Notes: generated by a model not told the origin, from the sequence alone. A stretch of 53,751 nucleotides of DNA from a virus (IMGVR_UViG_2698536392_000015:1-53751), one strand, 5' to 3'; positions 3,216 through 23,300 are shown, counted from the first letter of the stretch. Numbers and translations: made by a program.

Positions 3216-3854
3216 TTACCAGTCAATCCAGAGTGGACCGTGTTCAGCGTAAATATAACTGTACACATCCAGATTATATTTGTGGTCTGTTAAGAACAGG
3301 CCGCAAATACATGCCGAAGCTTCCAGTGCAGCGGCTCTGTTACTGAATAACCATGTAGCAACATTCCAGCGTTTTTCTGCATCCCAGTCTTTCTCAAGGC
3401 CTGATACCATGAAGAAACCGTTAGTGTTGCCATCAAATAATTCTGTTTCCAAATTTTTAAGCAATGCCTGATGGACTCTTGCCAGGTATTCCGCCGGAAT
3501 TTCGCCACGAATTCTGATGAGATTGTCATAAACAAACATGTTCCCCGCATATGGCGATTTTTCTTTCTTGTTTTTTAAACCAGCATCATGAGCAAACTGA
3601 TCAATTTCTTCTTCCGTTGGTTTCGTATTGATGTTTTGCGCTGTCGTTTCTGCAATTTTATTTGCCACACTCTCTGAGTCGTGTTTATTTATAGACGCAC
3701 AGAAATACAATCCGGTAAACGCATCGCGCACATTACGAGCCATATTATCAGTGTCTTTTTTCGTTACCGATTCCAATTCAAGTTCGTTCAGACGATGACG
3801 AAGTGTGTGTGCTGCAATCTCCTGGATTGAAGGAGGTAAATCTTTAAATTCCAT
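3216..3854 (-). CDS. Hypothetical prophage protein (212 aa)
   Basis: Track ORF 3216..3866; start MEFKDLPP at 3854 with GAGG RBS; stop abuts the upstream gene. Confidence 0.5.
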   Translation of the reverse strand: MEFKDLPPSIQEIAAHTLRHRLNELELESVTKKDTDNMARNVRDAFTGLYFCASINKHDSESVANKIAETTAQNINTKPTEEEIDQFAHDAGLKNKKEKSPYAGNMFVYDNLIRIRGEIPAEYLARVHQALLKNLETELFDGNTNGFFMVSGLEKDWDAEKRWNVATWLFSNRAAALEASACICGLFLTDHKYNLDVYSYIYAEHGPLWIDW

Positions 3855-8652: not shown

Positions 8653-9290
8653 GAGTCAGCGGTTTTTTTACCAGTGTAATGGTATAAGGATACTCCCATG
8701 TGTCTTACATGATATGGAAGCGCTGTTGCTGGATGCTTTGTGATACTCTTAAAGCGGAGGGGAGAGCCTTCCGCTTCAATTTCTGCGTCCGAAACGGTCG
8801 TAGAGAAAAATTCTTTCCATTCATTGAATTTTACTGCTGATTTGTCAGACTTTATATAAATTAGAATTCCTCCATGATCGTCACGTGACGTACCCGTGCC
8901 GTAACGTTCGGTTAGCTGAATCCAGCCATTATGAATAGATTTGGGGCCTCTCCATAATTTTGCTTCACCGATCCATTCGAATTTTCCGAATTGATGTTTA
9001 ACTAATAAATCAACGTGACCGCCATGTTGAGTATCATGTTCAACATCATAAAACCTACCTTTCAGGAAATTTTTGATCGACGCTGTTAGCTCGTCCTCTC
9101 CCCACTTAGCATCTTGATAGAAGTGTTTGTCATTTTCTAAATTCTGAATAGCGTCGTCTAAATCTTCATAGAGTTGCTTTACAAAAATATTTTTGTCTGC
9201 AGCTAATTTTCTTTGAACCATTCCCCTAAATTCAGGATCCATTCTAATTAATGATTGAAGGTCTGCAGTACAGATGTTTACATCACTCAT
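8649..9290 (-). CDS. Hypothetical protein with PD-(D/E)xK nuclease-like motif, gene 3 of a three-gene operon
   Basis: GHVDLL...GEAK spacing compatible with a PD-(D/E)xK core; start MSDVNIC at 9290 with GGAGAG RBS; overlaps the upstream gene stop. Confidence 0.5.
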   Translation of the reverse strand: MSDVNICTADLQSLIRMDPEFRGMVQRKLAADKNIFVKQLYEDLDDAIQNLENDKHFYQDAKWGEDELTASIKNFLKGRFYDVEHDTQHGGHVDLLVKHQFGKFEWIGEAKLWRGPKSIHNGWIQLTERYGTGTSRDDHGGILIYIKSDKSAVKFNEWKEFFSTTVSDAEIEAEGSPLRFKSITKHPATALPYHVRHMGVSLYHYTGKKTADS

Positions 9291-12776: not shown

Positions 12777-13388
12777 TTAACCAACAACATTTTTCTTTAC
12801 TGTCACTGCCCCTGATTCCTGGGTGGCGTTATTGCTCGAGTTGTACTTCTCAATAACGCGCAAAATCTCTTTGTCTGTTTCTTCACTTCCCGCCATTCCT
12901 ATCTTTATTGCATTTTTTAGTACGGGACGTAATGGCAAGGCATCAATGATGCTTTCTACCGCATCCTGGCTGATTGTAGATGTATTCATTGCTGCCAGCC
13001 TGACAAGGTTGTTAGTACCTTCTCGCCTGATGAATGTAAGGATTAATTGCTTCTCTTGGGGGCTTAGAGAGCTAAGCGCCTGATCAATACCCGAACCTGA
13101 ATCGCAATTATTTTCGATTTTTCCGCATTCATCTTCGTTCTTGCCTGTGGCCAACCATTCGAGTGAACAATTACAGGCTTTAGCTATTAAGGCCAGTTTA
13201 TCCAAAGGAGGGAAGTTTTTCCCCTTCCTGTAATTTCTTACTGTGGCTTCAGATAGTCCACAAAGGGTCGCCAGTTCGACGTTTGTCATGTCTCCCATAG
13301 CCATAGCTAAGCGTTCTGAAAATCGGTTTATTCCTTCCATATCAATAAACCGTTCCGCACTGGATACGGTTTTTTCTGCCTTATCCAT
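12777..13388 (-). CDS. Mu-like prophage repressor (XRE-type HTH)
   Basis: HTH (MTNVELATLCGLSEATVRNYRKGK); leftward gene at the left end, divergent from ner. Confidence 0.7.
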   Translation of the reverse strand: MDKAEKTVSSAERFIDMEGINRFSERLAMAMGDMTNVELATLCGLSEATVRNYRKGKNFPPLDKLALIAKACNCSLEWLATGKNEDECGKIENNCDSGSGIDQALSSLSPQEKQLILTFIRREGTNNLVRLAAMNTSTISQDAVESIIDALPLRPVLKNAIKIGMAGSEETDKEILRVIEKYNSSNNATQESGAVTVKKNVVG

Positions 13389-13544
13389 ATAACCCCCTAT
13401 AAAACAAAGAAATTATCGATATCGCATTTAATTTCGATGCGCTCGCAAAAAACCGTTGATATCGAATTATTTTGCGATTATGATTTACCTAAATCGATAA
13501 CCGGTTTTGATTATCGGTTCAGGTAAACATGAGAGGATCACACA
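13389..13544. promoter_or_regulatory. Operator/early promoter region between repressor and ner
   Basis: Multiple CGATA/TATCG-centred repeats (ATCGATATCG, TTGATATCGAAT, AATCGATAACC, GATTATCGG). Confidence 0.5.
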
Positions 13545-13811
13545 ATGAGGGTATCCAGACAAGCATCGAATAATTTGTTTGTTCGAGAGGGGTGTGACTG
13601 GTCTGCTAAAGCGGTATATGCAGCCCTTGAAAACAAAGGCACAGACCTCCCTGAACTGGAAAGGGAGTTAGGATTAAAAAGCGGATCAATGCGCAATGTG
13701 TTTTACCGCCAGTGCCGTAAATACGAAGCCGCCATCGCCGAAAAAATAGGGGTTGAACCTGCTGTAATCTGGCCCAGCAGATACCAGGTGGACGCCAGAG
13801 AAGTGGCTTGA
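13545..13811 (+). CDS. ner: Ner-like DNA-binding protein
   Basis: C-terminal ...AVIWPSRYQ motif as in Mu Ner; position between repressor and transposase. Confidence 0.7.
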   Translation: MRVSRQASNNLFVREGCDWSAKAVYAALENKGTDLPELERELGLKSGSMRNVFYRQCRKYEAAIAEKIGVEPAVIWPSRYQVDAREVA

Positions 13812-13821
13812 TGGGGGATGT

Positions 13822-15912
13822 ATGTGGGTAACAGCAAAAGAATGTGTTGGTCTTCCTGATTTACCAATGATGGAACATAACATTCGCCATCGACTCACAA
13901 AAGCAGCTGCGGGAAATGCAGCCATGTTACGCAAACGTAAGGGGACAAAAGCAATCGAATTTAATATCGATTGTTTGCCTTCTGGCGCGCAACAAGTATT
14001 GCGTGAACGTTATGCCCTTCAACTGATGACGCAAAAAGCCGATGAATCACCGGCTCCGGTGGTGACAAAGGCCAGACGCTCGCCTGCCGTGGTTGATGCG
14101 GTGGAGGCATATCGCGGATCACCACAACTGATGGTTGAACGCCTTAATGCCCTGACTGAAAACCAGCGCCAGGTGGCTGATGCACGAATCGCGATCGTCA
14201 GCGAAGTGATGAAAGTCGCGCAACAACCCGGTTTCAGCTGTGCGAAAGCTATCCGGTTTATCGTTGACAACCTGGCACGTTCGCAGCTGGACGAGCGCAT
14301 TGTGGCAATGGTTGAGACGGCGAACGCCAAAAAGGGAAACAGCCGCGCGTTGAGTGAAATCACGCTGAAACGCTGGATTGCAGCCTTTAACAAGGCGCAG
14401 AACGCCGCCGAACGCCTGCTTTTACTGGCACCGGGTAAGCGCCAGGAAATAAAAGCCGAAGATATTAACTGGCTGCCCGAATTTCTGGCGCAGTATCGCC
14501 AGTCAAACGGCCGACCAATGACCGAGGCTTACGAGGATTTTGTCGCTGAATGGCAGCACCGGCACGCTGATGAGCCTTATATGCTCGATATCATGCCGTC
14601 TTATGACACCATTCGCCGCGCAATGAAGAAACTGCCGGAAGTGGTGAAACAAAAAGGCCGGGTGACCGGCAGTGAATACCGCCAGCTTGAGGGATTCACG
14701 CGCCGCGACTGGTCAAAAATGCCGGTGAATTATGTCTGGATTGGTGACGGTCACGGCATGAAGCTGAAATGCGCACACCCGGTTCACGGTCGGCCATTTG
14801 CACCGGAAGTGACCTTTGTTATCGACGGTGGCACGCGCTTTGTGGTGGGCTGGAGCCTTGACCTGGCTGAAAATGTTTTCGCCGTAGCCGGTGCCATACA
14901 GCACGGCATTCGCCATCACGGCAAACCGTTTCTGTATTACTCGGATAACGGCTCCGGGGAAACCGCCGACATCCTGGATAAGGAGGTTGTGGGGATACTG
15001 CCGCGACTGGGGATTAATCACCCGACCGGGATTGCCGGTAATCCGCAGGGACGAGGCATTATCGAACGGCTTAACCGCACATTACCGATGCGCATAGCCC
15101 GTAAATACCGCACCTATTTCGGGAAAGGTGCAGATCGCGAGACGTTACGCAAAACCAACCGCGATTTACGCTCGGCATTTACTGCCCTGCAACAGGGCAA
15201 ACGGCTGAACGCCCGGCAGCAGTCAGCGATGCGTGATTTACCGTCCTGGTCTGAACTGATTGATGCCATTCGTGACGGTGTTGAGTGGTACAACAACCGG
15301 CCGCACGATGAATTACCCATGAAGCCGAACGGGAAACATTACAGCCCGGCGGAGTTCAGAAAAAAACGCCTGGCGGAAGAGGACACTGAAATTGAATGGC
15401 TGTCCGATGTTGAGCTGCGGGATATGTTCCGGCCGATGGTGGAACGCCCTGTAAGACGCTGTGAAATACGCTGGCTGAATAATATTTACTACGCGCCCGA
15501 GCTGCGTGACGAGCATGGCCGCAAGGTGCTTATCAGCTATGACATTCATGATGCCGAACGAATTACCGTTCGTCGCCCGGATGGCAGCGTGATTTGCGAG
15601 GCGGTATGGGACGGCAATAAACGCGAAGCCTTCCCGGTCAGCGCGGAATACTACAAACAGCAGCAGCGCCTTAAAGGTATGCGTAAACGCGCAGAGGAAA
15701 AAATCCGTGATGCCGAGGATGAGGTTGTCAACGTGCTGGAGCACAAGCCGCAGGAGCCATGGCTGGAAAACATATACCGCCCTGTGGGTAATACGGTGAC
15801 CGTTCAGCGACCAGCCGTTGATGATGAACCTGATGAAGAATACGAGCGTAATTTCCAGCGGGGATTGCAGTTGCTGGAAGCGAAATTAAAAGAAAATGAC
15901 CCGCTGGCCTGA
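13822..15912 (+). CDS. Mu-type DDE transposase
   Basis: 696 aa; N-terminal WVTAKECVGLPDLP resembles the MuA N-terminus; position and size match MuA. Confidence 0.9.
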   Translation: MWVTAKECVGLPDLPMMEHNIRHRLTKAAAGNAAMLRKRKGTKAIEFNIDCLPSGAQQVLRERYALQLMTQKADESPAPVVTKARRSPAVVDAVEAYRGSPQLMVERLNALTENQRQVADARIAIVSEVMKVAQQPGFSCAKAIRFIVDNLARSQLDERIVAMVETANAKKGNSRALSEITLKRWIAAFNKAQNAAERLLLLAPGKRQEIKAEDINWLPEFLAQYRQSNGRPMTEAYEDFVAEWQHRHADEPYMLDIMPSYDTIRRAMKKLPEVVKQKGRVTGSEYRQLEGFTRRDWSKMPVNYVWIGDGHGMKLKCAHPVHGRPFAPEVTFVIDGGTRFVVGWSLDLAENVFAVAGAIQHGIRHHGKPFLYYSDNGSGETADILDKEVVGILPRLGINHPTGIAGNPQGRGIIERLNRTLPMRIARKYRTYFGKGADRETLRKTNRDLRSAFTALQQGKRLNARQQSAMRDLPSWSELIDAIRDGVEWYNNRPHDELPMKPNGKHYSPAEFRKKRLAEEDTEIEWLSDVELRDMFRPMVERPVRRCEIRWLNNIYYAPELRDEHGRKVLISYDIHDAERITVRRPDGSVICEAVWDGNKREAFPVSAEYYKQQQRLKGMRKRAEEKIRDAEDEVVNVLEHKPQEPWLENIYRPVGNTVTVQRPAVDDEPDEEYERNFQRGLQLLEAKLKENDPLA

Positions 15913-15983: not shown

Positions 15984-16916
15984 ATGACTGATATTAACGA
16001 TGTAATCAAGACCATTGATGAACTTATTGATGGCGGCGTACTGACGCAGTATGCCATCGCCAGAGAGGCGGGAATTTCCGACGGCACATTATCGGCTTTC
16101 CGTAAGGGAAAATATAAAGGCGATAACGCTGCTGTGGCTGCTTCCCTGTGTTCCTGGTATGAGAACTGGAATAAACAAAGCGCACTGCCGGAACCGCCGC
16201 AGTTTGTGGAAACGCAGACAGTCCAGGAGCTGCGCGCGCTGTTTCAGGCGGTTCGCCTGATGGGCTGTATTAACGTTATTGTGGGCGTGCCGGGGGTAGG
16301 TAAAACGGCCACCGCCCGTAATTACTGCCAGGAGCAACCAAACACCTGGATGATCACCCTGTCTCCCGCGCATTCCAGCGTCACGGAGTGTCTGCTGGAG
16401 CTGGCCGATGCGCTGGGGATTGATTACACCCGCGCGAACAAGGGGGCATTATCCCGCGCCATCCGCCGTCGCCTGATGGGAACGCGTGGACTGGTGATTG
16501 TGGATGAGGCGGATCATCTTGGTATTGACGGTCTGGAGCAACTCCGGGCAATTCAGGACGCCACGGGGATCGGGATGGTGCTTATTGGTAACCCGCGCGG
16601 ATTGTTTAAAGGTGGACGCCGCGCCTTTGATGATTTATCGCGCCTGTTCAGCCGTCTTGCCCGTACAAAACAACTTCGCAAGGCCAAAAAGGCGGATGTG
16701 CTGGCCATTGCCAGGGCGTGGGGTATCAGTGGTGAGGCCGAGCTGGCTGTCATGCAGGCTATCGCTGAAAAACCGGGAGCATTACGTGTTTTGACGCATA
16801 CGCTTAACCAGGCGTGGATCACCGCCAGCGGTGAAGGTGCGGCGCTGACAGAAAAACATATTAATGCGGCTTTTAAAGAGGTTTACACCAACCCTGAATT
16901 ACTCTCGCAGGTGTGA
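15984..16916 (+). CDS. MuB-like AAA+ ATPase transposition protein
   Basis: Walker A GVPGVGKT, Walker B LVIVDEAD; follows the transposase gene. Confidence 0.9.
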   Translation: MTDINDVIKTIDELIDGGVLTQYAIAREAGISDGTLSAFRKGKYKGDNAAVAASLCSWYENWNKQSALPEPPQFVETQTVQELRALFQAVRLMGCINVIVGVPGVGKTATARNYCQEQPNTWMITLSPAHSSVTECLLELADALGIDYTRANKGALSRAIRRRLMGTRGLVIVDEADHLGIDGLEQLRAIQDATGIGMVLIGNPRGLFKGGRRAFDDLSRLFSRLARTKQLRKAKKADVLAIARAWGISGEAELAVMQAIAEKPGALRVLTHTLNQAWITASGEGAALTEKHINAAFKEVYTNPELLSQV

Positions 16917-17140
16917 TTATGGCGGTATTTAATATTCCTGATATTTACGGGCGCTTTTACCTGGTTAATTTCGATAACGTCAAAGCAGTCTCCATGTCTG
17001 ACAGTGAAGAATGTGGCGATTTACTCTTTGAATTTAATGATCGCACCCGAATGGCAATATCGGCAGGGCTTGATCGTGAAGGTGCGAAAGAAGCTTACAG
17101 CAATATTTGTCGCTTTATCGGTGCAAGACGGGTTAGTTAA
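16913..17140 (+). CDS. Hypothetical early protein (75 aa), in the position of Mu kil
   Basis: Track ORF overlapping MuB stop; positional inference only. Confidence 0.4.
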   Translation: MIMAVFNIPDIYGRFYLVNFDNVKAVSMSDSEECGDLLFEFNDRTRMAISAGLDREGAKEAYSNICRFIGARRVS

Positions 17141-17152
17141 ACGAGGTGTTAT

Positions 17153-17575
17153 ATGAATACGCAGATACAGCAGGAAATTAATGCTCTCCATCACTTTCAC
17201 AGGCAGAACGACAATGCCGGAGTGGTTTGTGATTATATCTGGACGTCGATAAACAGAAGCACTGGCGTATGTTTCCTGTGTCTGGACGTATATCAGTTGT
17301 ATGCCGACCTGCAACCTGAATCCATCCGGCGCCGTTTTAATGGTGAGTGCTTTAATGAGGATGTCTGGGAAGGCCTGCGCTTTGGTTTTCTGATTATGGA
17401 TGATTATCGCCAGGGGTGGCGACATAGTTACTCCATTCTTCGGGCAATCATGCGTGGCGAAACCCGAAAAATGCCGGGGATGGGTAAGGTTAATCGCGGC
17501 CTCCTGTTAGAGATAGCAGCAGCGCACATGAATCCATTACTGATACAACCGGAGTTTACTTATGAATTTGTTTGA
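17153..17575 (+). CDS. Hypothetical early-region protein (140 aa)
   Basis: Track ORF. Confidence 0.4.
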   Translation: MNTQIQQEINALHHFHRQNDNAGVVCDYIWTSINRSTGVCFLCLDVYQLYADLQPESIRRRFNGECFNEDVWEGLRFGFLIMDDYRQGWRHSYSILRAIMRGETRKMPGMGKVNRGLLLEIAAAHMNPLLIQPEFTYEFV

Positions 17576-17792
17576 TTCACTGAATAACGCCCGTCGCCTG
17601 ACCGAGCTTGCCGGTGCGGTACTGGAACGCAGTAAGCGCTATCCGCAACGTTTTGCACTGAAAACCACGCCGCCGGTAGGCGAGGTTCAGGGGAGTGGTG
17701 AAGAAATTGAAATCACCGTTAAGACCAACGGCCTGCGCCGCCGTGTGAAGGCCACCCGCATAAGCGGATGCACGGTTTACTGGGAAGTATGA
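17562..17792 (+). CDS. Hypothetical early-region protein (76 aa)
   Basis: Track ORF overlapping the previous stop. Confidence 0.35.
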   Translation: MNLFDSLNNARRLTELAGAVLERSKRYPQRFALKTTPPVGEVQGSGEEIEITVKTNGLRRRVKATRISGCTVYWEV

Positions 17793-17866
17793 AGTTACTT
17801 CATGGTTCGGCTCTGTCATCAGGCCAGACGCCGGGTCAGTTATCCGAACAAAACGAGGACCAGAGG

Positions 17867-18139
17867 ATGAGTAAAGTCGTACGCATTATTTTCGAATACA
17901 AGGAAGATGTTATCTGCAAAAACTCTGATGGCAGCACGCACAGAGGGGTAAGTCTGGATATACGTTCAACCGGAATAAAGAAGAAAGATAATGGACCCGC
18001 CATGATTTTTGGGGTGGTTATGCTGGCAGAAAGCAGAAACTTCGCAGAGCTTGTGGCAATGAAAGCCAGTGCATTCATGAAAGACAGGGGTATGGCTTCC
18101 GGGGTTATTAACGGTAATGAATTTAATCAGCAGGGGTAA
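17867..18139 (+). CDS. Hypothetical small protein (90 aa)
   Basis: ATG 17867 with GAGGA RBS; N-terminus MSKVVRIIFEY resembles the next gene. Confidence 0.4.
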   Translation: MSKVVRIIFEYKEDVICKNSDGSTHRGVSLDIRSTGIKKKDNGPAMIFGVVMLAESRNFAELVAMKASAFMKDRGMASGVINGNEFNQQG

Positions 18140-18143
18140 TTCC

Positions 18144-18437
18144 ATGAGCAAAGTACGCGTTATTTTTGAATTTGAGCATGTTTCGCATGACGAAAAGCTG
18201 GCAGGCAATGACTGTGTTGAAGTGCATGAAAAGATTGGAGTGAATGTGAAAACAGAACGTGATACGGAGAACAGCCCGACGTCACTCTGTGATGTTTATG
18301 CAAGTATTCTCCAGTATCACAGTCCTGTAATTATTCAGTTTCTCTCAGCGGAATTTCAGGCATCTGTACAGGCTTTTGGGGCGGATGCCATCATTAAACG
18401 CCACCGTGTGCATAAAGCATCAGGCACACTGCAATAA
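18144..18437 (+). CDS. Hypothetical small protein (97 aa), possible paralogue of the previous gene
   Basis: ATG 18144; N-terminus MSKVRVIFEFE. Confidence 0.4.
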   Translation: MSKVRVIFEFEHVSHDEKLAGNDCVEVHEKIGVNVKTERDTENSPTSLCDVYASILQYHSPVIIQFLSAEFQASVQAFGADAIIKRHRVHKASGTLQ

Positions 18438-18447
18438 GGAAAACAAA

Positions 18448-18978
18448 ATGGTTAAACGTGTTACAAAATTAAAGGCCGCAGCCGAGGCTGCACCGCAGAC
18501 CCGCGAAGAAGTCAGCCGCGATATCCGCACCCTGGGCGATATTCAGCGAGAGGCGCTGCGCCTGGAAACGGCAATGAATGATGAAGTGGCAGAAATCACC
18601 GCCCGTTATACGCCGCAGATTGAAAACCTTAAAAAAGAAATCAAAGTGCTTTTTAAAGGGATTCATGACTGGTGTAAAACCAACCGCAATGAGCTGACGA
18701 ACGGCGGCGAAACCAAAACTGCCAATCTGACCACCGGAACGGTGTCATGGCGGCTGGGAAATCCATCATGCAGCGTCAGTCGTGATGTGGAAGGTGTGAT
18801 TGAAATGCTGCGTCGTATGGGGCTTGAGCGCTTCATCCGCACGAAAGAGGAAGTGAATAAGCAAGCTGTCCTGGCAGAGCCGGATGCGGTGAAAGGGATT
18901 GCTGGTATTAAGGTGAATAAAGGCGCTGAAAGTTTTCATGTCGAGCCTTTTGAACAGGACGCCGGACTGAATAAATAA
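18448..18978 (+). CDS. gam: Host-nuclease inhibitor Gam (Mu-type)
   Basis: Strong resemblance to Mu Gam as recalled (GDIQREALRLETAMND, ELTNGGETKTANLTTGTVSWR, RFIRTKEEVNK); RBS AAGGAA. Confidence 0.85.
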   Translation: MVKRVTKLKAAAEAAPQTREEVSRDIRTLGDIQREALRLETAMNDEVAEITARYTPQIENLKKEIKVLFKGIHDWCKTNRNELTNGGETKTANLTTGTVSWRLGNPSCSVSRDVEGVIEMLRRMGLERFIRTKEEVNKQAVLAEPDAVKGIAGIKVNKGAESFHVEPFEQDAGLNK

Positions 18979-19050
18979 CACCGCATTAAATCTTTAAATA
19001 TCACATCGTTTTAATTATGGCGCTTGCGTCAGGGGACTGCTCGCGCCTGA

Positions 19051-19641
19051 ATGAGGCATATCATGAGTATAAAATATCGTTATTTTAAAATGAATGAGCG
19101 CGATTCCCGTCATTATCACAGGGAATGGCTTGATTGCGCTGGCAGGGAGCGCCAGAAATTGATTGATGATTTTCTCAGTAATCAGAATGCCAGAGGGTAT
19201 TGTTGTTCCTGGTATTGTGGGGATTTTTTTGTCAAATCAATACTGGTGCATGAGGATGTTGATGTCGGAAGAAATAAGCGGGTGCTGTCTGATAAATTTG
19301 ATGAAGATGGCCGCGTTTTATTTTCAGTTAAGCCCGACCGCAGATTCAGAGAGGGAAAAAAACTGAACAAAGCACTGAATATCTTAAACGAGAAGTTAAA
19401 ACAGCTTCCGTCATTCAGTACCTGGATGGTTAATAAACTGGACTGCTATTTTGAGGTTTTTGGTGTCAGCAACGGCCGCACAGTTATGGCGTGCTCTTCT
19501 GCCGGGTTCTATGGCGACAAAGGGGCTGTTGTGGTTCGTATTCCTGTCGGTGAATCAGATAATGCCTTTTCACCTGAAAAGCTGCATCCGTCATTGATGG
19601 CAATCAAGCATTCCGAATTCATCGCAATAACGGAGGAATAA
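19051..19641 (+). CDS. Hypothetical early-region protein (196 aa), AT-rich
   Basis: Track ORF. Confidence 0.4.
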   Translation: MRHIMSIKYRYFKMNERDSRHYHREWLDCAGRERQKLIDDFLSNQNARGYCCSWYCGDFFVKSILVHEDVDVGRNKRVLSDKFDEDGRVLFSVKPDRRFREGKKLNKALNILNEKLKQLPSFSTWMVNKLDCYFEVFGVSNGRTVMACSSAGFYGDKGAVVVRIPVGESDNAFSPEKLHPSLMAIKHSEFIAITEE

Positions 19642-19644
19642 TTC

Positions 19645-20178
19645 ATGATTGATGCAAAAGTGCTTGAAGGGGTTAAAAACTGGCTGCGTTTTTCTGGCCG
19701 TCTGACCAGTCGTTCTCTGGCTGAAAAAATGAATATGCCGCTATCCTCGATGGTTTATTTTCTGCGTGATGCGGTTGATGCCGGGGTGCTGACGGAATGT
19801 AACGGTTTTTATGATATTCCGCGTCCCCGCCCGGTGCAGCCGGTTCGTCGCAAATGCAGCCAGGAAGGTGCGGCTGATGATGTTCAGTGGTGCAGCTTCA
19901 GAAAATCCCTGCCGTGGATTGAAGGGCATGATATTCCGTCGATGGCGTGGGAATTTGCTCAGGGCGTACTGACCTGTGAAACCGTTTATGTGGTGGCTGA
20001 AGTTGATGAGCAGGCCATGAAAGAAGGCGTGCCCCAGTTTGTGATGGCGTATATCGACATTCGCCTGGGTGTCATTATCTGCGGTTTAAGCGGCTGGAAT
20101 ATCACCGAACATGTTCTGCGTTACCTGATTGTTGACCGGACGGCTGCGCCTGCCGGGATATCTGCGGAGGTGGCGTAA
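19645..20178 (+). CDS. Hypothetical early-region protein (177 aa)
   Basis: Track ORF. Confidence 0.45.
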   Translation: MIDAKVLEGVKNWLRFSGRLTSRSLAEKMNMPLSSMVYFLRDAVDAGVLTECNGFYDIPRPRPVQPVRRKCSQEGAADDVQWCSFRKSLPWIEGHDIPSMAWEFAQGVLTCETVYVVAEVDEQAMKEGVPQFVMAYIDIRLGVIICGLSGWNITEHVLRYLIVDRTAAPAGISAEVA

Positions 20179-20693
20179 TGTTCTTTAAAACATCAAACCC
20201 TTCCGCGCTGGCTGCGTGGCAAAAATACCAGCAGGACTACAAGAAAGTTAAGGATGAGGCAAAACGTCTTGAGGCCGTGCTGAATGTTGATTGTCGGTCG
20301 GTATTTGTATCCGGTATCAATGGTTTTTATTTTAAAGGACTGCGTTTTACGGATAACAAATATCCTTTTCATCGCGACTTATGGCGAAAACCGACCGCGT
20401 CGAATGGCTGGAGCTGCACGCCGCGCACATCGTGTATTCCCAAAGCCCTGTGCGCTGCCTCTGACGAACTTAACAGTCTGTGGCGTGAATATTCGCCCGT
20501 CACGTATGCCAGAACCGATGCACTGTTGTTCTGGCTGGGCATTGACTTCTCAGCAATATTGCATGGTCCCGTGAAGTGGTTCTGCGTTGATGATGTGATT
20601 TACCTTCAGTGTGGCGTACAACCTGAAAAACAGAGAATGACCGAAATTCTGTCTGATGAGTTTTATGCTGCTGAAAAGCGAGTCAGGGGGTGA
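20178..20693 (+). CDS. Hypothetical early-region protein (171 aa)
   Basis: Track ORF, start overlaps previous stop. Confidence 0.45.
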   Translation: MFFKTSNPSALAAWQKYQQDYKKVKDEAKRLEAVLNVDCRSVFVSGINGFYFKGLRFTDNKYPFHRDLWRKPTASNGWSCTPRTSCIPKALCAASDELNSLWREYSPVTYARTDALLFWLGIDFSAILHGPVKWFCVDDVIYLQCGVQPEKQRMTEILSDEFYAAEKRVRG

Positions 20694-20696
20694 TGT

Positions 20697-21248
20697 ATGA
20701 TGATTTTACAACCCATGGGGCGAAAAGGTCGTGCACCCGCTCATGTCCGTCCGTGGACACCTGAAGAAGATGCGCTGCTGATTGCGCTTTATCCATCCAC
20801 CCCGGTTAAGGATATTGCTGTCAGGGTAAAAAGAAGTTTCTGGGGTGTACATAACCGGATTGTTTTATTACGCGGTACTTACCCGGAGTTGCTCAAATGC
20901 AAACGCCTCAGATTTAAACCTGATGAAGATAAATTTATCCGAAAAAATGCCAGGACGATGACCGGTAAGCAAATAGGAGAATATCTGGGGCGAGACCGGG
21001 ACTCTGTCCACAATCGGGCGCGATATATTGGCGTAAGCATGAAAAAATACGGAGAGTTGCTGCCCTTCACCCGCATACCTGACGATGATGTTCGTCTTAT
21101 TCGTGAATTACGGGATGCTGAATCACCACGGCGTCTTACCTTTAGGGAAATCGGCGAGAAATTTGAATTATCCGAGGGCACGGTGAGTTTTATTTATCAC
21201 CGTCGTCGGACTGCCGAAGATGTTGTATTACGGGAGTTAATGTCATGA
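20697..21248 (+). CDS. Hypothetical protein with HTH-like repeats (183 aa)
   Basis: Two HTH-like segments (WTPEEDALLIALY; GKQIGEYLGRDRDSVHNRARYIG). Confidence 0.45.
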   Translation: MMILQPMGRKGRAPAHVRPWTPEEDALLIALYPSTPVKDIAVRVKRSFWGVHNRIVLLRGTYPELLKCKRLRFKPDEDKFIRKNARTMTGKQIGEYLGRDRDSVHNRARYIGVSMKKYGELLPFTRIPDDDVRLIRELRDAESPRRLTFREIGEKFELSEGTVSFIYHRRRTAEDVVLRELMS

Positions 21249-21577
21249 TAACGACATTATTTGTTGAATCAGATGAACCCCTTGTGTGTGCCGCCGGAAT
21301 GCCGGTCTGTGGCGGAACGCTGACCGGTGTTTATTTCGGGGATTTGCGCGGTTATCCCTGGCATTCACTGAATGATGCTTTCCCGCCTGATATGGAGGCT
21401 GTCGTGCTGATTGTTCAGTATGGTCACAGGCAGGAACTGCGCATCGGCCATATGGGGTATGAAGGCTTTTTTATTGATGAAGAAACTGGATCCTGCCTTG
21501 AAGATGAGGACGGACAGGTGACGCACTGGTGCCATATTTCAGCTTTACCGGAATTACAGGAGACGCCCAATGGATGA
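21245..21577 (+). CDS. Hypothetical protein (110 aa)
   Basis: Track ORF. Confidence 0.4.
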   Translation: MITTLFVESDEPLVCAAGMPVCGGTLTGVYFGDLRGYPWHSLNDAFPPDMEAVVLIVQYGHRQELRIGHMGYEGFFIDEETGSCLEDEDGQVTHWCHISALPELQETPNG

Positions 21578-21710
21578 TCAAATAGTTGAATGTCCCACCT
21601 GTGGAAATGAAGCCCCGGAGTATCTGAAAGAGTGCCCACATTGTGGTGAGGTAAAATGTAATCACTGCGATATGGGCGACGACACTGCATGTATGAATTG
21701 TGAGGATTAA
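21570..21710 (+). CDS. Small zinc-ribbon protein (46 aa), below the ORF-track cutoff
   Basis: Manual translation MDDQIVECPTCGNEAPEYLKECPHCGEVKCNHCDMGDDTACMNCED with four CxxC motifs. Confidence 0.35.
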   Translation: MDDQIVECPTCGNEAPEYLKECPHCGEVKCNHCDMGDDTACMNCED

Positions 21711-22002
21711 TAATATGGAAAAAGAAATCAAATTTGCGCCTAAAGATATCGACGAAGAACTGGCTAAAATCGGCATGCTTGAGCGTATGCGGGACATTAT
21801 CGAATATGCGATAAAAGAAAATCTTGCAGCCAGAGAAGCCCTTTTGATAATGGAGCGGGAGATTAACCTGATTAAGGATGCTGTATCTCTGGATAATAAA
21901 ATAGCCCGCGAGGAATACGTTCGCCGCAGGCTCGGTGTTGATGGTTCAGCAATTCTTACATCTGAACATTATGCAAAAATCTTTAATCTTTTTTCGCGGT
22001 AA
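21700..22002 (+). CDS. Hypothetical protein (about 95-100 aa)
   Basis: Track ORF; likely start MEKEIKF at 21715. Confidence 0.35.
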   Translation: MRINNMEKEIKFAPKDIDEELAKIGMLERMRDIIEYAIKENLAAREALLIMEREINLIKDAVSLDNKIAREEYVRRRLGVDGSAILTSEHYAKIFNLFSR

Positions 22003-22222
22003 TGCCCATGCAGGCCCGGAGATTGTCGAAATGCCAGTTTGTATTAATATATGAGCCATCCTGGTGTCCCTCTGCGCTTTGGGGTGCGGCACTTTTTTGA
22101 GCAATATTGATAATATGTGTTGCCTCCTCACGGGAAATAACCCCCTTATCGAACAGGGTTACCATAAGATTTCCAGCCATTGTGAATGCGGCAACATCAA
22201 GGGCATTTTTTATATCTGACAT
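21983..22222 (-). CDS. Hypothetical protein (79 aa) on the opposite strand within the Mu-like early region
   Basis: ATG preceded by AAGGAAAAA; convergent with the upstream plus-strand gene. Confidence 0.4.
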   Translation of the reverse strand: MSDIKNALDVAAFTMAGNLMVTLFDKGVISREEATHIINIAQKSAAPQSAEGHQDGSYINTNWHFDNLRACMGITAKKD

Positions 22223-22242
22223 AGATTTTTCCTTTTATGTTA

Positions 22243-22272
22243 ATTGACATGGCGGTGCGGTAACACCGCCCA
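22243..22272 (+). terminator. Hairpin plus T-run upstream of the GemA-like gene
   Basis: GGCGGTGCGGTAACACCGCC followed by CATTTTTTAT. Confidence 0.4.
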
Positions 22273-22292: not shown

Positions 22293-22805
22293 ATGAATCG
22301 CGCTTCCCTGATTACCTTAATACATGTCGCAAAACGCGATCTACAGCTTGACCGGGAGACCTATATATCCGCGCTGCTGGCAGCCACCGGCAAAACCAGC
22401 TGCCGGGATATGTCACCGGATGAGTTATCCCGCGTGCTGGATGTTTTCAAAAAACGCGGTTTTAAAGTGCGCCAGAAGCCGGTTAACCGGGCCTTAAAAC
22501 CGGGTACGGTGACCGCCAAAATTCGTGCCATCTGGAAGGTAATGCACCGGCAGGGCTTTATCTCTGATGGTGCGGAAACCGCCCTTAACCGCTGGGTGAA
22601 ATCGCAGACGGCCGCGCAGAACGGCGGCGAAGGTGTGGCAAACTGGCAGTGGCTGGAGCAACACCCCGCCCTGGCCTCAGATGTGCTGGAGCGTCTCAAG
22701 CGATGGCACCGCCGCAAAATGCTGGCCGCGATGGGAATGCCCGAACGCACGCTGATGGGGTATGACGCCGTTTGCAGGCAGTATGAAAAATCACTTCCCC
22801 GTTAA
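22293..22805 (+). CDS. GemA-like regulatory protein
   Basis: N-terminal pattern (LITLIHVAKRDLQLDRETYISALL...TGKTSCRDMSPDEL) resembling Mu gp16/GemA as recalled. Confidence 0.6.
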   Translation: MNRASLITLIHVAKRDLQLDRETYISALLAATGKTSCRDMSPDELSRVLDVFKKRGFKVRQKPVNRALKPGTVTAKIRAIWKVMHRQGFISDGAETALNRWVKSQTAAQNGGEGVANWQWLEQHPALASDVLERLKRWHRRKMLAAMGMPERTLMGYDAVCRQYEKSLPR

Positions 22806-22874: not shown

Positions 22875-23300
22875 ATGGCAGAAACTCAGATGAGCATGTT
22901 TGGTGGTGACAGTGAGCAACAGCACGCCCTTATCGACCGCCTTGATGACATCCCTGATGATGTTCTCAAAAAGAACTGGCCGCGGACCCTGTCTGAACTG
23001 GTTGAAGTCACCGGCGCAGAACTTCAGCGTCAGGGGATTGAGCCGGTACTGGCCGGTAAACTGGCACGCAAGGTGGCTGCGGCTCAGGCAGCCTATATGG
23101 GCGGACGGGGTTATTACCTGCCGGTCGGGGAATCTCTCTTTGCCGAGCTGCGAAACAATGAGATATTTTCGCGCTGGGACCGGGGCGAGAAAATTGAATC
23201 CCTTCGCCGCCATTACCGGATGTCAGAAACCCAGATTTATACCGTCATACGCGAACAGCGCCGTCTGCATCTGGCAAGAACGCAACCGCCACTTTTCTGA
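22875..23300 (+). CDS. Mor/C-family transcriptional activator
   Basis: C-terminal HTH ...LRRHYRMSETQIYTVIREQRR and YYLPVGESLF pattern typical of the Mor/C family; GGAGG RBS. Confidence 0.7.
   Translation: MAETQMSMFGGDSEQQHALIDRLDDIPDDVLKKNWPRTLSELVEVTGAELQRQGIEPVLAGKLARKVAAAQAAYMGGRGYYLPVGESLFAELRNNEIFSRWDRGEKIESLRRHYRMSETQIYTVIREQRRLHLARTQPPLF

Follow-up and report, generated by a model that had tools for sequence, protein, structure and literature searches.

Gene map of a probable semi-essential early region in an Sp18-type Mu-like prophage of Escherichia coli

The gene block between MuB and GemA

The DNA analysed here is a viral stretch of 53,751 nucleotides (nt), IMGVR_UViG_2698536392_000015, which we call the window. 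Our subject is the block of small genes at 16913–22222, between the genes for MuB and GemA in the left arm of a Mu-like prophage. The listing of open reading frames (ORFs) gives 14 genes here, 13 on the plus strand and one on the minus strand (Table 1); the initial annotation, made from the sequence alone, had counted about 15, and the ORFs and features that it placed in the block are all real. The plus-strand genes are tightly packed, with stops and starts that abut or overlap, and the first of them, w01, starts within the end of the MuB gene, overlapping its stop. We conclude that the block is very probably a semi-essential early (SE) region, the distal and presumably non-essential part of the early genes, and that it belongs to a Mu-like transposable prophage of E. 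coli of the Sp18 type. It lies 3' of A and B on the same strand and 5' of gemA and mor, it contains both kil and gam, and it carries homologues of Mu gp11–gp14 that fall in the same PHROG families. The Mu-type early accessory region that had been proposed from the sequence is thereby upheld.

Ten of the 14 genes have a counterpart in phage Mu, clear for Kil, Gam and gp11–gp14 and weaker or partial for gp7, gp8, gp9 and gp15; those without one are w01 (16919), w04 (17867), the DUF5420 gene w07 (19063) and w11 (21245). Gam is 54% identical to Mu Gam by BLASTP and covers the PF07352 profile in full. By the same program w08 is 66% identical to Mup11 (shared family phrog_1949), w09 is 53% identical to Mup12 (phrog_2314) and w13 is 50% identical to Mup14 (E 8e-29; phrog_6075). 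The product of w03, at 76 amino acids (aa) against ~74 aa for Mu Kil, is 33% identical to it (BLASTP, E 1e-4), and the two cross-match in both directions at the profile level: w03 matches phrog_2679, annotated 'Kil', at E 3e-39 and phrog_2743 at 4e-4, and Mu Kil matches phrog_2743 at 1e-42 and phrog_2679 at 9e-5. The N-terminal half of w02 is 33% identical over 76 aa to Mup08 (gp8, E7; E 3e-7), both proteins matching phrog_3690, and w10 is 32% identical to Mup09 (gp9, E8; BLASTP, E 4e-8), within the one family phrog_323. The links are weak for w14, whose family phrog_32893 is matched by Mu gp15 at 6e-4, and for w05, whose family phrog_2230 is matched by Mu gp7 (E6) over its full length at E 0.009.

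Several points weigh against parts of this assignment. The similarity of w03 to Mu Kil is moderate; w03 is the third gene after B, the place of kil in Mu being the first; and comparison of gp7 with the w05 family by hhalign gives a P-value of 0.41, which weakens the link between w05 and gp7. Ten genes of the block also have no assignable function.

The block is therefore less orphan-like than the initial annotation had it, with counterparts in Mu for most of its genes. These do not all map to characterised Mu proteins, because the matching Mu genes are themselves without known roles: the homologues are annotated 'hypothetical' in the Mu records, and the Harshey laboratory has called the functions of the SE genes in Mu 'largely unknown' (PMC3820752). 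The statement that only gam is recognizable does not hold, as Kil, a regulator with helix-turn-helix (HTH) and Myb matches and the gp11–gp14 homologues can be identified; taken as a statement about function it is nearly true, and most genes of the block are indeed of no known function.

The whole 5.3 kb is 97% identical in DNA, with identical gene order, to a prophage of E. coli SCU-106 (NZ_CP053234), and it is also 97% identical to a Mu-like insert inside the Stx1a phage LC727895. Judged from sequence identity, these two elements are of the same phage lineage as the window; the depositors of LC727895 liken such inserted Mu-like phages to Sp18 of O157 Sakai (PMC10132054). Among 5426 complete E. 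coli genomes, 232 contain parts of the block. Just 15 of those 232 cover at least 80% of it, the remainder having alternative cassettes. The block is thus an ordinary member of a long-known type of region, of which many copies are already present in public genomes.

Table 1. Genes of the block at 16913–22222 and of its flanks, with the families or domains that they match. PGAP, Prokaryotic Genome Annotation Pipeline.
Gene or product	Coordinates	Strand	Size	Family match or source
CI-type repressor	12777–13388	-		ORF listing and Pfam/PHROG scans
Ner-like HTH_35 protein	13545–13811	+		ORF listing and Pfam/PHROG scans
MuA transposase	13822–15912	+		ORF listing and Pfam/PHROG scans
MuB ATPase	15984–16916	+		Phage-MuB_C and AAA_22 domains
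w01	16913–17140	+	75 aa; 73 aa from ATG 16919 (PGAP start)	phrog_3375 (E 3e-41)
w02, gp8-like	17153–17575	+	140 aa	phrog_3690
w03, Kil homologue	17562–17792	+	76 aa	phrog_2679
w04	17867–18139	+	90 aa	phrog_4107 (E 7e-55)
w05	18144–18437	+	97 aa	phrog_2230 (E 4e-38)
Gam	18448–18978	+	176 aa	PF07352 (E 2e-39)
w07, DUF5420	19051–19641	+	196 aa; 192 aa from probable start 19063	PF17457
w08, gp11 homologue	19645–20178	+	177 aa	phrog_1949; Gp11_C PF25754 (E 6e-41)
w09, gp12 (E13) homologue	20178–20693	+	171 aa	phrog_2314
w10, gp9-like	20697–21248	+	183 aa	phrog_323 (E 4e-58)
w11	21245–21577	+	110 aa	phrog_6925 (E 1e-51)
w12, zinc ribbon, gp13 (E14) homologue	21570–21710	+	46 aa	phrog_5584
w13, gp14 (E15) homologue	21700–22002	+	95 aa from PGAP start 21715	phrog_6075
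w14, at the position of Mu gp15	21983–22222	-	79 aa	phrog_32893 (E 2e-40)
GemA	22293–22805	+		PF06252
Mor	22875–23300	+		PF08765

The adjacent genes w04 and w05

The genes w04 and w05 are adjacent on the same strand, 4 nt apart, and of similar size. Their products begin MSKVVRIIFEY and MSKVRVIFEFE, the near-identity of N-termini that had first drawn attention to them, and their DNA is ~85% identical over the first ~33 nt; the remainder cannot be aligned at the DNA level. We believe that the two are probably diverged tandem paralogues, about 25% identical in protein sequence, that have both kept the N-terminal beta-strand that is the signature of the family. The pair had been put forward as a possible one, and its standing is now raised to probable by profile comparison.

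Between the window copies themselves, pairwise BLASTP reaches just E 0.006. The best pair of alleles, w04 of locus L033 against w05 of locus L058, aligns along its whole length, with 27% identity across 86 aa and a single-pair E of 2e-7. We then compared alignments of 46 w05-family sequences, from E. coli and Salmonella prophages, and eight w04-family sequences. hhalign gave a probability of 75% and a P-value of 2.4e-5 over columns 1–65 against 1–69, and a local rerun gave 66% and 5.6e-5. As controls, 13 unrelated small-protein families of the same loci gave P-values of at least 0.15 against w04, and the best of 40 column-shuffled w05 alignments reached 7e-4.

The alternative is that w04 and w05 share only the 5' segment of ~33 nt, as a product of gene conversion or at a mosaic recombination junction, and are otherwise unrelated. 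The abrupt end of the DNA similarity and the modest BLASTP value of the window copies are what it would predict, and recombination at the junction of the pair is evident in E. coli locus L008, where comparison of ~3440–3815 with window 17790–18440 shows the upstream leader of w04 joined to a w05-type gene at the shared 5' segment. When the first 13 residues are removed, the hhalign P-value falls back to 0.019. The register of the alignment is nevertheless unchanged by this truncation, and the shortened w04 alleles are still matched, at E 3e-5, by the remote family member L044. The similarity is colinear from end to end in proteins of 90 and 97 aa, and both the unrelated and the shuffled controls are far weaker than the pair itself. 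Moreover, no part of the w05 family, distant Salmonella members included, is more conserved than the N-terminal strand, so that retention of this strand in w04 is as homology predicts. We therefore regard a shared 5' segment alone as an unlikely explanation and prefer paralogy. Three considerations temper that preference: the signal leans heavily on the 13 N-terminal residues, diversity in the w04 alignment is very low (effective number of sequences, Neff, 1.4), and the structure model covers w05 alone.

That model, made with AlphaFold2 (AF2), has a mean predicted local distance difference test (pLDDT) score of 84 and consists of a long beta-hairpin followed by two helices; Foldseek returned no viral match for it. 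The w05 family has 119 members by profile search and is spread through Mu-like prophages of E. coli and Salmonella. A single-sequence, word-indexed search with w05 finds 22 close relatives, at least 67% identical, and a diverse profile is needed to reach the Salmonella branch. For w04, phmmer was run exhaustively on 1.84e9 representative proteins and brought up just four genuine relatives and no link to w05 or gp7, its other matches being spurious long repetitive proteins. Likewise, jackhmmer searches started with w04, with w05 and with Mu gp7 left the families separate when run over the ORFs of the 58 related loci described below. A loose clustering did merge w04 with w05; the merge was due to translated upstream sequence in L008, and we dropped it as evidence of homology.

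A single w05-type copy, with no w04, is present in L008 and in the Salmonella-type loci L044–L052. We think it likely that w04 is an additional copy which only the E. coli lineage has, and that it arose there by tandem duplication and then diverged fast. The direct repeat of ~33 nt at the 5' ends of the two genes would allow a copy to be lost later by recombination.

Backbone, cassettes and the constraint on their genes

We compared the block with 58 related loci, of which 54 were retrieved from IMG/VR with the gp11 homologue as query, supplemented by records of E. coli and phages that carry annotation. The comparison shows a mosaic in which AT-rich cassettes that can be swapped are set into a conserved backbone. 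Kil, the w05 family, Gam, gp11, gp12 and the gp9-like gene form the backbone; w02, w04, the DUF5420 gene, w11 and the gp13–gp14–gp15 set are present, absent or swapped among close relatives. Exchange is seen at three points. After w01, 24 loci have Kil with a phrog_1518 gene, six have Kil by itself and five have a gp8-like gene with Kil, so that w02 is a minority cassette (five of 39 informative IMG/VR loci). After gam, the DUF5420 gene is present in 22 loci and absent from 11. After the gp9-like gene there is either the gp13–gp14–gp15 set or one of several uncharacterised cassettes. The variable genes have 41–47% G+C, against 51–57% for A, B, gam and gemA; w04 has 44%.

Some loci differ further. 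In the Salmonella-type loci L045–L052 a DUF3164 protein (phrog_846, 212 aa) lies at ~3.7–4.3 kb in each, at the position of Gam in the E. coli lineage. In L036 (2997–3248) the N-terminus of w01 is fused to the C-terminus of the phrog_1518 gene, with loss of Kil, and in L057 (2515–3147) the gp8-like gene is fused in frame to Kil. Merges of w01 with the phrog_1518 gene and of w02 with Kil in the loose clustering were artefacts of these fused ORFs, in L036 and L057 respectively.

The cassette w07 belongs to DUF5420 (PF17457), with a score of 51.7 bits against a Pfam gathering cut-off of 26; the match lies in its C-terminal 114 residues. Its slot, between gam and the gp11 homologue, holds this allele, a ~23%-identical allele of the same PHROG, or nothing. 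It was singled out in the initial annotation as AT-rich, and rightly so, since its G+C content is 42.8% and the prophage side of the window has 53%; six other genes (those at 16919, 17867, 18144, 21570, 21715 and 21983), at 41–44%, share this property. A single-sequence, word-indexed search found eight close relatives of w07, and relatives in some Vibrio phages are annotated 'EaC'. Neither a fold nor a function was found for w07 or for the w04/w05 pair, and the literature searched held no functional work on DUF5420, the Mu locus tags or the Sp18 early genes. The start of w07 (19063–19100) encodes an alternating hydrophobic strand, MSIKYRYFKMNE, and a near-repeat of 14 nt (family D2 of the repeat scan) is common to the 5' ends of w07, w04 and w05, probably by coincidence.

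The 46-aa zinc ribbon predicted earlier is also present. The four CxxC motifs of w12 are CPTC, CPHC, CNHC and CMNC, and the protein is 92% identical to the C-terminal 39 residues of Mup13 (88% in DNA), flanked by genes at 50–66%. On these identities w12 is a homologue of Mu gp13. It has a net charge of -10, and there is an 8-nt overlap between its start and the stop of w11. Differences among alleles fall 19/20/86 over the three codon positions, which marks it clearly as coding, and its DNA differences from Mu are, by eye, mostly silent, so that we read its high conservation as strong constraint. In near-identical E. coli records PGAP leaves the gene unannotated (the gap is at 9162–9300 in L003).

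The gp9-like protein w10 is strongly basic, with an isoelectric point (pI) of 10.2 and a net charge of +13. It has sub-threshold Pfam matches to Sigma70_r4, HTH_AsnC and Myb, and three repeats can be discerned by eye, with matches of the Myb/SANT and HTH types. These features suggest that w10 is most likely a DNA-binding regulator. Its neighbour w11, of 110 aa, is very acidic, with a pI of 4.2 and a net charge of -15. At 80–83% identity, against 47–70% for neighbouring genes, w11 is better conserved between E. coli-type and Salmonella-type loci than any other gene. No match to w11 was found in the PDB, Pfam or Mu. A passing resemblance of its C-terminus to DUF551 was unsupported by the Pfam scan, and we make no claim from it.

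Purifying selection acts on the genes of the block. In the 58 loci, allele differences are commonest at the third codon position in all 14 ORFs, the excess being weak for the gene at 19063 and based on one allele for that at 17153. The Nei–Gojobori ratio of nonsynonymous to synonymous change (dN/dS) is 0.07–0.39 in the 13 genes with usable alleles, 17153 giving no usable value. MuB has 0.05, Kil 0.07 and Gam 0.09, and the highest values in the block are those of w05 (0.39), w07 (0.36) and w04 (0.28). For w01, with 42% G+C, the differences are distributed 102/137/392 and dN/dS is 0.16.

The initial annotation also noted that regions of this kind often hold host-takeover and anti-defence functions, a reading backed here by Kil and Gam alone. 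It could be proposed that the block is a counter-defence island in which an inhibitor of a host defence system, beyond Gam, is encoded by at least one of the variable, fast-evolving or acidic genes w04, w05, w07 (DUF5420) and w11, and the exchangeable slots are the product of an arms race. The cassettes are indeed gained, lost or replaced among near-identical prophages and are AT-rich relative to the backbone, and the three highest dN/dS values fall on w05, w07 and w04. In many relatives, the gene in the slot after Kil belongs to a PHROG family that carries the annotation 'host nuclease inhibitor'. The strongly acidic composition of w11 is also of a kind common among DNA-mimic inhibitors. Finally, small accessory ORFs in the plastic regions of Mu-like phages from Pseudomonas aeruginosa include anti-CRISPRs (PMC4378225); those loci, however, are located elsewhere in their genomes, and nothing comparable was identified in the window.

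Sequence and fold searches with the ORFs of the block gave no match to any characterised inhibitor, whether anti-restriction protein, anti-CRISPR or DNA mimic, and beyond Kil and Gam no ORF matched a characterised family, a solved structure or a defence-related profile. PDB sequence searches with w02, w07, w08, w09, w10, w11 and the w05 profile returned nothing meaningful, and PADLOC, NCBIfam and Rfam scans nothing useful for the block. The dN/dS of every gene is well below 1, and relaxed constraint would explain the higher values equally well. The case for counter-defence is one of sequence data, and we consider it improbable. Its fullest form has an even smaller chance of being right, namely that the AT-rich, exchangeable and least-constrained w04/w05, the DUF5420 gene and the acidic w11 are host-interaction or counter-defence proteins, and that duplication of w04 extended an inhibitor family to a second host target. 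An SE region with accessory cassettes remains our preferred description. Even so, w04, w05, the DUF5420 gene and w11 are the most sensible first candidates for a host-takeover or counter-defence screen of Mu-type early genes.

The annotation of the gene ends and of the last gene needs comment. In the 97%-identical E. coli record PGAP uses later starts for three genes (16919, 19063 and 21715). In the interval between gp14 and gemA, the two Mu records conflict on the coding strand: NC_000929 has gp15 (Mup15) on the minus strand and AF083977 has Mu_54 on the plus strand. In the window, differences in the minus frame of w14 are distributed 30/17/49 over the codon positions with a dN/dS of 0.25, and the overlapping plus-strand ORFs (22064–22219 and 22107–22247) have no third-position excess. 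These substitution patterns, together with the PHROG cross-match to Mu gp15, favour the minus-strand gene. This conflict between Mu records, like the lack of a PGAP call at 21570–21710 in the closest E. coli records, might be taken to mean that several of the small ORFs are open by chance, within an AT-rich spacer, and are not genes, a reading we can practically dismiss, since each falls in a PHROG family with a strong E-value, all have the third-position excess, dN/dS is low wherever measurable, and their stops and starts overlap or abut as is typical of coupled phage genes.

Expected activities and comparison with Mu-type phages

By analogy with Mu, we infer that the block is co-transcribed and that Kil and Gam act as their Mu counterparts do. 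Transcription from the early promoter would take in the 13 co-oriented genes as the last part of the ner–A–B transcript. Kil would block host cell division and alter cell shape, and Gam, a Ku-like protein, would bind double-stranded DNA ends and so shield incoming or replicating phage DNA from host exonuclease. The basic gp9-like w10 probably binds DNA, and the remaining genes would be accessory, with no assignable activity.

In the 11 kb scanned, the best sigma-70-like site is TTGATA-17-TATGAT at 13456–13484, between the divergent repressor and ner-like genes; it sits where the Mu early promoter would be. Just 5' of gemA, the terminator pattern scan picked out a hairpin rich in G+C, GGCGGTG-CGGTAA-CACCGCC, with a T run behind it (22251–22270, plus strand), which could be a partial terminator between the SE genes and gemA–mor. 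The corresponding position in Mu carries the annotation 'semi-early promoter'. Two of these observations count against a single early transcript as drawn above. The hairpin and T run, with a separate Mu promoter at that place, leave the limits of the operon uncertain, and the promoter and terminator scans found no more sites than in shuffled sequence.

The block is no new kind of system, and the practical value of its description is small. What we add is the probable paralogy of w04 and w05 and a slot map of the early region, that is, a gene-by-gene comparison of the Sp18-type lineage with phage Mu that separates fixed positions from sites of exchange.

In Mu itself the SE region (NC_000929/AF083977, ~4.3–8.2 kb) consists of kil, gp6–gp9, gam and gp11–gp15, followed by gemA and mor. 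The block shares with it the position and orientation from B to gemA and mor, the relative order of the kil, gam and gp11–gp14 homologues, and a gp15-like minus-strand gene as the last in the series. It differs in having no gp6 homologue, in the placing of its gp8-like gene before kil, and in its gp9-like gene, which follows gp12 rather than preceding gam and encodes 183 rather than 99 aa. Four of its genes have no counterpart in Mu, and the protein identities of the others are mostly 32–66%. At the DNA level, Mu, D108, SfMu and Yersinia Mu-like phages match about a quarter of the block at ~70% identity. Closest of all are the Sp18-type elements of SCU-106 and LC727895, in which the gene for the 46-aa zinc ribbon is missing from the RefSeq annotation.

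Mu has no DUF5420 gene. Remote relatives of it, just ~27% identical to w07, lie directly after gam in SfMu (ORF11), in SuMu and in a Mu-like phage of Mannheimia, and the authors of the SfMu study found no homologue of ORF11 in Mu or D108 (PMC4406740). The Mu-like phages of P. aeruginosa (Cazares et al., 2014; PMC4378225) carry plastic-region ORFs that have no sequence relationship to those of the window. Their layout is nevertheless the one seen here: short ORFs that can be swapped break into a conserved core at set positions, mostly in the left arm.

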